Below the pieces are notes generated by a model. It was not told the origin of the DNA. It saw nothing but the letters and a program-made list of their open reading frames with translations, and searched no databases. A program made the translations under genes and the position numbers. This document shows positions 12,005-13,735 of a stretch of DNA of 64,000 nucleotides, one piece after another (position 1 is the stretch's first letter; every line of letters starts with the position of its first letter). This DNA comes from a virus, in UHGV virus genome UHGV-0131811; one strand, given 5' to 3'.

Positions 12005-12340
12005 CACCAACATCACTTAAGAGTCTTCTAAGAGGGTTTTTAAGTAATGTGATGTTTGGTTTGGTGTGGTCAGGTAATGTGATGTCTGGTTTAGTGCGGT
12101 GATGTGCGGTCCGGTAAGGTCCGGTGCGGTAAAGTGCGGGTAGTTAGTCTCAGCTACATTAAAATGAGACTTACCTTTTTAAAAGGTCTTTAAGAGGGTC
12201 TTTTAATAAGGTGCTGTATGGTAAGGTGATGTCTGGTGTGGTAGGGTGAGGTTAAGTGAGGTGAGGTATGGGTGGATGGTAGTAGCCACGTTAAAAATCT
12301 ACCAAGTTTCTAAAGAGTCTTCTGTTGAGGGTTCTTTACA
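12005..12340 (+). repeat. GT-rich repeat block A (two units of conserved box + GT-rich hexamer run + hairpin box)
   Basis: Boxes CTTAAGAGTCTTCTAAGAGGGTTTTTAAG and AAAGGTCTTTAAGAGGGTCTTTTAATAAGGT each followed by ~70 nt of GGTNNG-type repeats, then GGGTAGTTAGTCTCAGCTACATTAAAAT / GGATGGTAGTAGCCACGTTAAAAATCTACC. No ORF of 60 aa or more. Confidence 0.6.
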
Positions 12341-12379
12341 AACAACTTAACAATCAACTAAAGTGTGGAGCTAAATGCT

Positions 12380-12967
12380 ATGAAACTGTTAAATGTCAAA
12401 ATCACTGGTACTCGTCCTTTCCTGAGCCATAACGATACACTGTCAGACCCATTAAACCCTCTGACTAAATATCACAAGTCTCTGTCCAGTAAACGTAAAA
12501 AGACTGACGAAGACTATGCGCTCTTAGCAGAAAGCCAACTGGTAACCTCTTGTTACTACGATGAGCAGCTAGGTTTTGTTATGAACGGTGAGATGATTGA
12601 GGCTTGTATCAAGTCTGGTGCAAAACTCAACAAACTTGGTAAGGTAATTGACCGAGCTATTATGCTGACAGATGTAGTCTTCCCAATGACTATCAAGAAC
12701 TGTCCAGCAAACCCACAAGAACTTGCTAAGAACCCAGACTTTATCTATGCTAAGTCTGTTAAGATTGGTACAGCACGAGTTATGAGCTACCGTCCAATCT
12801 TCCGTGACTGGTCTGTAGAGTTCGGTTTGATGTTCGATGAAGAGCAAATTACCAAAGAAGAACTCTTGATGGTTCTGGAAAATGCTGGTAACCTTTGCGG
12901 TGTAGGTGATTGGCGTCCACGCTTTGGTCGTTTTTCTGTAGAAGTTATTTCAGAAGGTAACGTTTAA
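12380..12967 (+). CDS. Hypothetical protein (first gene of repeat-flanked cassette)
   Basis: ATG 12380 with GGAG about 10 nt upstream; track start 12365 is a GTG. No motif recognised. Confidence 0.5.
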
Positions 12968-12969
12968 TT

Positions 12970-13410
12970 ATGAATACAAAAGCATTAGCAGCAAAGTTTA
13001 GTTACGGTGACACTGTATCACACTCTGAGATGGATACCTTCTTAGGTATTGTGAAGCCAACTTATCAAGGTGACATTGTTAAGTACGAAGATGAAATGAA
13101 GGCTTATGCGCTTACACGTCTAAACCGACTTGAGAAATTTATTGAGAAGCTTCTTAAAGAAGAGAAGATTTATCTGGTTGCTTCAATGGGTGTTGGTTAT
13201 CGTGTGGTTGAGCCTAAACATCAAGCAACTATTGCAAAACGCAAAATGTCTGGTAAGATTGGTCGAGCTTTAAAGCAAGCCACTCAAGCAATTGAGAATG
13301 TGAACACTATGGCACTTAGCCATCAAGAACGTTCACGACTGATTGAACAGCAAAACCATTTAGCTGCTATGAAAGCTAACATTAACAAGCAACGCAGAAA
13401 ACCTTTCTAA
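12970..13410 (+). CDS. Hypothetical protein (second gene of repeat-flanked cassette)
   Basis: 146 aa, starts 3 nt after upstream stop; basic C-terminus. Confidence 0.5.
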   Translation: MNTKALAAKFSYGDTVSHSEMDTFLGIVKPTYQGDIVKYEDEMKAYALTRLNRLEKFIEKLLKEEKIYLVASMGVGYRVVEPKHQATIAKRKMSGKIGRALKQATQAIENVNTMALSHQERSRLIEQQNHLAAMKANINKQRRKPF

Positions 13411-13421
13411 GTTGACTAGGT

Positions 13422-13445
13422 AGCCTCTTCGGAGGCTCCTTTTTA
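13422..13445 (+). terminator. Rho-independent terminator-like hairpin
   Basis: AGCCTCTTCGGAGGCT followed by CCTTTTT immediately after stop of 12970..13410. Confidence 0.55.
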
Positions 13446-13735
13446 AAAGGTCTTTAAAGAGGGTCTTTTAATAAGGTAAGGCACGGTTATGTCAGGTATG
13501 GTACGGTACGGTTAGGTAAGGTGAGGCGGAGTAAGGTATGGGTAGTTAATCGGAGCTACATTAAAATTCGATTACATCACTTAAGAGTCTTTTAAGAGGG
13601 TTTTTAAGTGAGGTGTGGCACGGTAATGTTAGGTAGGGTCAGGTCAGGTCAGGTGAGGTAAGGTAAGGTGATGTATGGAAGGATGGCAGTAGCCTTATAA
13701 AAAATCTGCCAAATAAGCTATAAAATCTGTTGACA
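13437..13735 (+). repeat. GT-rich repeat block B (paralogue of block A)
   Basis: Same box order as 12005-12340, including (GGTCAG)3-GGTGAGGTAAGGTAAGG at 13640-13670; ends in TTGACA...TATTTT promoter-like sequence before 13803 gene. Confidence 0.6.

Follow-up and report, generated by a model that had tools for sequence, protein, structure and literature searches.

The 64,000-nucleotide stretch analysed here (virus genome UHGV-0131811, hereafter the window) derives from a Felix O1-like myovirus of the genus Felixounavirus. Its positions 12005-13735 hold a repeat-flanked locus in which two non-coding blocks (12005-12340 and 13437-13735) bracket a pair of + strand genes, vipr and vap1, an arrangement already recognized in an initial annotation of the raw sequence. 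To its left lies the DNA ligase gene (10697-11797) and to its right a series of early genes, all of them + strand genes. Salmonella phage SeKF_63 and Escherichia phage ASO1B share 98% identity with the region, which has matches in 231 phage records. The non-coding flanks of the gene pair (12005-12379 and 13411-13802) carry four units rather than two blocks, namely 1a (~12014-12175), 1b (~12176-12303), 2a (~13441-13575) and 2b (~13578-13710), each composed of a box of ~30 nt, a periodic GT-rich tract and a structured tail of ~35 nt. A repeat search of the window recovered the units as a four-copy family (12014, 12176, 13441 and 13578), in agreement with the reported order of box, tract and hairpin occurring twice per block. 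The two blocks do share this internal order, as expected from their earlier description as paralogues, but they are a mosaic of two box and two tail types, with combinations I-a in 1a, II-b in 1b, II-a in 2a and I-b in 2b.

The tracts consist of a pentamer, G-G-Y-N-N, and not of the hexamer (GGTNNG) initially described: Tandem Repeats Finder returned periods of 5, 10, 15, 25 and 30 and never 6, and the sequence given as an example of the hexamer, GGTCAGGTCAGGTCAGGTGAGGTAAGG, parses as three copies of GGTCA, one of GGTGA and one of GGTAA. That the periodicity is not a chance effect is borne out by a count of in-phase GT dinucleotides, which occupy 12 of 12 successive positions per 60 nt in the four tracts, on the + strand only, against no more than 5-6 in the rest of the window, where no other array of this kind is found. 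The four tracts comprise between 12 and 19 pentamers (Table 1); unit 1a reaches 19 because of a 30-nt internal duplication of six pentamers (12044-12100, Tandem Repeats Finder), which shows that arrays lengthen by whole numbers of 5-nt units. In a set of 51 unique arrays (678 repeats) drawn from related phages and satellites, 99% of repeats have a G before the pyrimidine, 99.9% have T or C at the pyrimidine position and just 79% have a G at the first position of GGY; the two N positions take all four bases, so that the NN dinucleotide is hypervariable. None of the open reading frames of the window is a small conserved frame that would account for the tracts, and a scan with Rfam 15 at gathering thresholds retrieved tRNAs only, with no family matching any of the four units.

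Each tract runs into a tail of one of two types, a or b, and both can be written as an H-type pseudoknot with the same P1a-P2a-P1b-P2b topology (helices P1 and P2, as distinct from the promoters of the same names below). The GTAG...CTAC hairpin of the initial annotation is therefore real as a pairing, and is just one helix of this larger fold. Counting pairs over 11 and 5 distinct sequences, which are small samples, we found 100% of cells paired in tail a, with compensatory changes at three P2 pairs, and 96% in tail b, with compensatory changes at two P1 pairs and two P2 pairs; the two tail types together thus provide seven compensatory pairs, and controls with shifted partners pair at 23-51% (23-41% for tail a). 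At the conserved GGTATGG junction, the last one or two NN never match the targets described below and probably belong to the tail.

The two genes between the blocks, previously listed as unknown, can now be assigned. Vipr is identical at 190 of its 195 residues (97.4%) to the Vipr protein of phage SUSP1 (PDB 36pp_D, ALH47069), and Vap1 at 145 of 146 (99.3%) to the product of the SUSP1 gene directly downstream of vipr. Eight of the nine Vipr residues that contact RNA or GGY are kept (H17, E71, M72, R138, C173, D177, W178 and R179), the ninth, T175, being a valine here. An AlphaFold2 model of Vipr (predicted local distance difference test score 95.5) finds its best structural matches in Csm3/Cas7 from CRISPR complexes of types III and VII, and a profile of the Vipr family, built from 527 homologues in none of which a Pfam domain is found, matches the PDB entry 36pp, ‘SUSP1 Vipr protein’, with E=1e-79. 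A Pfam search gave no match for either cassette protein, and in PHROGs both fall exclusively into families of unknown function (phrog_5926 for Vap1). Furthermore, a blind scan of IMG/VR for six successive GGTNN pentamers picked up numerous non-coding arrays, heterogeneous in NN, on unrelated contigs of viral origin, and more than 20 of these contigs encode a Vipr homologue adjoining the arrays (tblastn). One of them, L043, repeats the layout of arrays, two genes and arrays with a Vipr homologue of 36% protein identity. Arrays and protein thus make up one conserved system.

With near certainty, the region belongs to type II VIPR (Viral Interference Programmable Repeat) and within it to the SUSP1 clade, defined by its authors as sharing >90% Vipr identity (10.64898/2026.04.26.720920 and 10.64898/2026.04.26.720927). 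VIPR was described in two 2026 bioRxiv preprints (10.64898/2026.04.26.720920, PMC13142463; 10.64898/2026.04.26.720927) as an RNA-guided DNA silencing system used by phages against rival mobile elements, and comprises vipr, which encodes a minimal, single-RRM RAMP protein, the accessory gene vap, and guide RNAs termed vrRNAs. The latter are ~100 nt long and contain 9-16 YNNGG repeats followed by an invariant tail of ~40 nt, which is pseudoknotted in the SUSP1 clade; this VIPR type silences rather than cleaves, Vap1 is a predicted DNA-binding protein that enhanced protection, most natural guides of the SUSP1 clade target a satellite phage in E. coli, and the authors propose the system as an ancestor of CRISPR RAMP proteins (10.64898/2026.04.26.720920, 10.64898/2026.04.26.720927). 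In SUSP1 itself, four vrRNAs of ~100 nt were detected by small-RNA sequencing, co-purified with Vipr and repressed transcription of their targets (10.64898/2026.04.26.720920).

The locus shares with that of SUSP1 the genome order (ligase, promoter P1, vrRNA or vrRNAs, vipr, vap1, vrRNAs, promoter P2), the two box and two tail types, the GGY/NN repeats and an E. coli satellite as the kind of target. It differs in the layout of the vrRNAs, 2+2 in the window versus 1+3 in SUSP1, in all guide (NN) sequences, in the 19 repeats that the 30-nt duplication gives vrRNA 1a, in Vipr residue 175 (V versus T) and in the phage genus, Felixounavirus as opposed to Suspvirus.

On this identification, each of the four GT-rich tracts is the guide portion of a vrRNA, and the vrRNAs lie in pairs on either side of vipr and vap1. 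Their mode of action we carry over, through near-identity, from the experimentally characterized SUSP1 system. Transcription would proceed from promoter P1 and the vrRNAs would be released as ~100-nt RNAs, with the pseudoknotted tail as the invariant handle of each. Vipr would then polymerize along the vrRNA, one protomer per pentamer, flipping out and holding GGY and leaving NN exposed for pairing with double-stranded DNA, one base being skipped between successive dinucleotides (NNx NNx ...). The bound filament is expected to repress transcription of satellite genes during infection, with Vap1 enhancing the effect. Since these are guide RNAs coated by a protein, one protomer per repeat, the ‘GU-rich structured RNAs or binding arrays’ put forward in the initial annotation as one of its two options are right in kind.

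Its other option, that the tracts fold into two-tetrad G-quadruplexes in DNA or RNA and so regulate replication or transcription, is formally possible given that GG recurs every 5 nt on the + strand alone. Yet such a structure needs pairs of G and has no use for a pyrimidine, which is not the pattern that the 678 repeats conserve; nor does it predict that the NN positions carry target information, as they do below. In unrelated phages, moreover, a RAMP protein accompanies the tracts. In the cryo-EM structure of the near-identical SUSP1 system each G lies in a protein pocket (10.64898/2026.04.26.720927), and because the conservation pattern is wrong for a quadruplex and fits these Vipr pockets instead, we consider quadruplex formation a highly improbable explanation of the tracts.

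When the locus was compared by BLAST with 5,426 complete E. coli genomes, 74 chromosomes proved to share an 84-nt stretch from the 3' portion of vrRNA 1b, spanning part of its tract and tail. Two of the regions concerned, L131 4940-16900 (E. coli EC12, CP070229) and L132 5349-16100 (E. coli 2013C-3492, CP027445), are integrated satellites of ~12 kb, each encoding a serine recombinase, baseplate and tape-measure proteins (Felix-type tail genes), an HNH endonuclease and several small proteins. Their insertion sites differ, one lying inside a DUF72 gene next to yecN and the other next to wrbA. Each bears a single vrRNA with a b-type tail (L131 14987-15051; L132 14991-15060), and neither vipr nor vap was found in either of the two.

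To look for targets, we decoded the guides according to the 1-nt skip rule of the preprints (NNx NNx ...) and searched for them on both strands of the two satellite copies. All four guides of the window find 9-10 consecutive perfect NN in satellite L131 (Table 1), within or antisense to satellite genes for 1a, 1b and 2b and in an unannotated region for 2a. The total of matched bases is decisive for 2a and 2b only, because the best of 200 shuffled guides reach 27 matched bases for 1a, a range that covers its total, and 20-21 for the other three, which equals the total of 1b; for these two guides, run length is the measure that separates a match from chance. Extending the scan to the set of related guides, runs of at least seven consecutive perfect NN occur for 22 of the 51 in the ~23 kb of satellite DNA versus none of the 51 in ~37 kb of flanking E. 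coli DNA. The present analysis establishes the components of the locus, their conservation and the complementarity between guides and targets. Within the window the guides have no self-target, their best self-match being at background level, and the satellites' own guides gave no convincing match in the window or in L131 and L132. Because the guides point at a satellite with Felix-type tail genes, which presumably parasitizes the window phage, the locus is best explained as a weapon in phage-satellite conflict.

Table 1. Features of the VIPR locus in the window and guide matches in the E. coli satellites
Feature	Location	Strand	Description
P1 promoter	11953..11980	+	sigma-70-like, TTGACA-16-TATACT, 11/12 consensus match; directly 3' of DNA ligase stop codon
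Box I of vrRNA 1a	12014..12043	+	CACTTAAGAGTCTTCTAAGAGGGTTTTTAAG; repeat search; kept in SUSP1 upstream of vrRNA1 and vrRNA4
vrRNA 1a tract	12044..12138	+	19 pentamers in G-T-N-N-G register; GGYNN register begins one base earlier
Tail a of vrRNA 1a	12139..12175	+	pseudoknot: P1 GTAG/CTAC, P2 AGTCTCA/TGAGACT
Box II of vrRNA 1b	12176..12210	+	TTTTTAAAAGGTCTTTAAGAGGGTCTTTTAATAAG; repeat search
vrRNA 1b tract	12211..12270	+	12 pentamers
Tail b of vrRNA 1b	12271..12303	+	pseudoknot: P1 GTGG/CCAC, P2 GGTAG/CTACC
Degenerate box-like sequence before vipr	12309..12340	+	TAAAGAGTCTTCTGTTGAGGGTTCTTTACAAA; also present in SUSP1
vipr	12380..12967	+	195 aa, RAMP-family protein
vap1	12970..13410	+	146 aa, accessory protein
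Terminator-like hairpin and T-run	13422..13445	+	AGCCTCTTCGGAGGCT; after vap
Box II of vrRNA 2a	13441..13475	+	repeat search
vrRNA 2a tract	13476..13540	+	13 pentamers, two with GGC replacing GGT
Tail a of vrRNA 2a	13541..13575	+	P2 = TAATCGGA/TTCGATTA, compensatory versus 1a tail
Box I of vrRNA 2b	13578..13607	+	repeat search
vrRNA 2b tract	13608..13677	+	14 pentamers
Tail b of vrRNA 2b	13678..13710	+	P1 AAGG/CCTT, P2 GGCAG/CTGCC, both compensatory versus 1b tail
P2 promoter	13730..13758	+	sigma-70-like, TTGACA-17-TATTTT, 10/12; serves next early gene 13803-14186
Guide 1a match	L131 8643-8668		9 consecutive perfect NN near 3' end (repeats 10-18); antisense to tape-measure gene; skip base at codon position 3
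Guide 1b match	L131 10352-10386	-	first 10 NN perfect; falls in a gene labelled ‘transposase’; codon position 3 is the skipped base
Guide 2a match	L131 14588-14625	-	23/26 guide bases, 10 consecutive NN; unannotated region upstream of satellite's leftward genes
Guide 2b match	L131 11646-11686 and L132 11822-11862	-	23/28 guide bases, 9 consecutive NN; small hypothetical gene

Several points weigh against the assignment of the locus to VIPR and of its guides to the satellite. The papers describing VIPR are preprints, and expression, processing, ribonucleoprotein formation and repression in the window phage are all transferred from SUSP1. With 19 repeats, vrRNA 1a is longer than the 9-16 repeats given in the preprints, and no target was found in the scan for its 5' half, where the duplicated part lies. 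The satellite scan covers two copies alone; in the 2b target the skipped base falls at codon position 2 and not at the wobble position; the total for guide 1b (20/24) is matched by the best of the 200 shuffled guides, and that for guide 1a (26/38) lies inside the shuffle range.

The register itself, a conserved triplet followed by a 2-nt spacer in more than 10 repeats on RNA, read by a protein oligomer, calls to mind the TRAP sites of the Bacillus trp leader, a resemblance and not a membership. On such a model a ring-shaped or helical RNA-binding protein would recognize the GGU triplets of a 5' leader and control a terminator-like tail, so that the cassette would be regulated in cis. Tail a of vrRNA 1a is indeed followed by five T residues (12176-12180), which give it a terminator-like look, the annotation of phage ASO1B lists the hairpin homologous to it as a terminator, and promoter P1 lies upstream. 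The same units, however, also occur downstream of the cassette as well as in satellites and in phages that have no cassette, the protein is a RAMP and does not have the TRAP fold, and targets are repressed in trans, which is at odds with a role in cis alone. In VIPR, moreover, the spacers carry information and pair with DNA; that they match satellite DNA under the skip rule means that they are not neutral. We accordingly give a TRAP-like leader very little credence.

An element acting as DNA, be it a replication origin or R-loop zone, a cluster of primase or Chi-like sites, or a partition-type binding array, is exceedingly unlikely: the G-rich non-template strand does lie between two promoters in a neighbourhood of replication genes, and the region is annotated as a ‘possible binding site of StbAB’ in phage KhF3 (GenBank KT184315), but the strict strand asymmetry and the compensatory tail changes point to a single strand that folds, the neighbouring open reading frames of the window include none for a StbA-type protein, and the SUSP1 units are expressed as discrete Vipr-bound small RNAs (10.64898/2026.04.26.720920). 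The strict 5-nt register together with the informative NN is left unexplained by Chi-like arrays, by an R-loop origin, by a TRAP-like attenuator, by RfaH ops-like sites (GGTAG), by T7-type primase sites and by a boxA/nut-like antitermination site alike. T7-type primase sites require GTC, whereas the base after GT varies in the tracts, and the likeness of GGTCTTTAA to GCTCTTTAA, which would suggest the antitermination site, amounts to a 7-8-nt match in AT-rich DNA.

Among known systems, the locus also stands close to the effector backbones of Class 1 CRISPR-Cas complexes, where Cas7/Csm3 assembles on the crRNA. Both use a RAMP fold with a G-rich loop and a thumb, both place one protomer per fixed number of guide nucleotides, and both cap a variable guide with a conserved structured handle. 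In VIPR, by contrast, the register is 5 nt, with three nucleotides held by protein and two pairing, and one target base is skipped per repeat, whereas in CRISPR every sixth base is unpaired; the VIPR system is, in addition, phage-encoded and comes without a repeat-spacer array, cas1/cas2 or other cas genes. Consistent with this distinction, the locus has no 25-40-nt repeats with spacers, there are no cas genes among the window open reading frames, and the cassette proteins, as noted, match no Pfam family.

The initial annotation also foresaw that direct repeats would make the cassette prone to excision or duplication, and the relatives fit this expectation, with one, two, three, four or five units and with or without the cassette, within an arrangement that is otherwise conserved. 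A single unit without the cassette is found in Felix O1 and JH2, and two units, again without it, in S19cd; Mushroom has one unit, the cassette and two units; wV8 shares the order of the window (two units, cassette, two units); I14.1 has one unit before the cassette and four after it, and SME50 two and three. Because the vrRNA block occurs in 231 phage records and Vipr in 118 Felix-like records, ~113 genomes, about half of the Felix O1-like phage genomes in GenBank, retain one or two vrRNA units in the interval from promoter P1 to promoter P2 as orphans, without vipr or vap.

Examples of such orphan units lie at L005 3497-3778 (Felix O1), L010 3498-3773 (JH2) and L007 3497-3936 (S19cd). In S19cd, 13 of 18 NN of the first array still match the satellite, and the single array of Felix O1 looks degenerate, with just seven in-phase repeats. 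In Felix O1, the box of the unit is of type I, like that of 1a, and its tail of type b, like that of 2b, just what recombination between the outermost units would yield. Most plainly read, the orphans are what is left after the cassette was lost by recombination between its flanking units. It is conceivable, if rather unlikely, that they are functional and are loaded in trans by the Vipr of a co-infecting or helper phage; if true, guides and effector would be exchanged or stolen between competing elements.

The element singled out by the initial annotation is thus real, non-random and correctly located, was partly misdescribed, and is an already known system in an experimentally characterized clade. 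VIPR is a recently reported form of DNA recognition by RNA in which a gapped code is read from pentamer repeats, and the window adds no new principle to it; it does illustrate that a reading of raw sequence alone can single out a VIPR locus, and it provides a guide-to-target map worked out for another phage. Relative to the preprints, this map, the orphan vrRNAs and the upstream box appear to be modest additions. For the VIPR field they indicate that orphan vrRNAs are widespread in Felix O1-like phages lacking vipr, that recombinogenic vrRNA units bracket the cassette, and that a conserved box stands before every phage vrRNA. The Felix O1 and UAB_Phi87 genome papers make no mention of these repeats.

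Beyond this clade, heterogeneous GGYNN arrays are numerous on unrelated metagenomic phage contigs, as in L043 4866-7399, L045-L049 (a 189-kb contig) and L130 1194-1745. They reach 27 pentamers each, and nine or more occur on one jumbo-sized contig. A Vipr homologue adjoins the arrays in L043 and L130, and tblastn found none in L045-L049. The motifs flanking the metagenomic arrays differ from the Felix type, with arrays ending for example in ...AAAGGAGTG. These arrays are probably other VIPR types.

At the left of the locus, promoter P1 occupies the same place in SUSP1, Felix O1, JH2, S19cd and Mushroom, and its position makes it the presumed start of a transcript containing vrRNA 1a, vrRNA 1b, vipr and vap. 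An inverted repeat, GGTGAGTA...TACTCACC (11969-12008), overlaps the -10 element of this promoter and is kept in SUSP1, Felix O1 and JH2; it could be an operator or a 5' hairpin. Promoter P2, conserved in all relatives examined, forms the right-hand boundary.

Finally, the upstream box precedes every phage vrRNA and, in its degenerate copy, vipr as well, where it overlaps the start of a weak promoter-like site (12335-12364); it is absent from the vrRNAs of satellites L131 and L132. It may be a promoter or processing signal. A looser box pattern run across the window gave extra matches mostly within coding sequence, among which only one resembles a true box: the box I-like sequence CTTTAAGGGCTTTCTAAGAGAGTCTTTAAAG (45380-45420, - strand), which stands 12 nt ahead of a weak tRNA-like gene (45300-45378) that scores 31.7 bits against the Rfam tRNA model and is not called by ARAGORN. 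With a copy also before this gene, the box could be a promoter or processing signal dedicated to RNAs such as the orphan vrRNAs, and may serve more generally for the small stable RNAs of the phage. A cluster of 25 tRNA genes, typical for Felix O1-like phages, extends over 41444-47018 on the - strand of the window.

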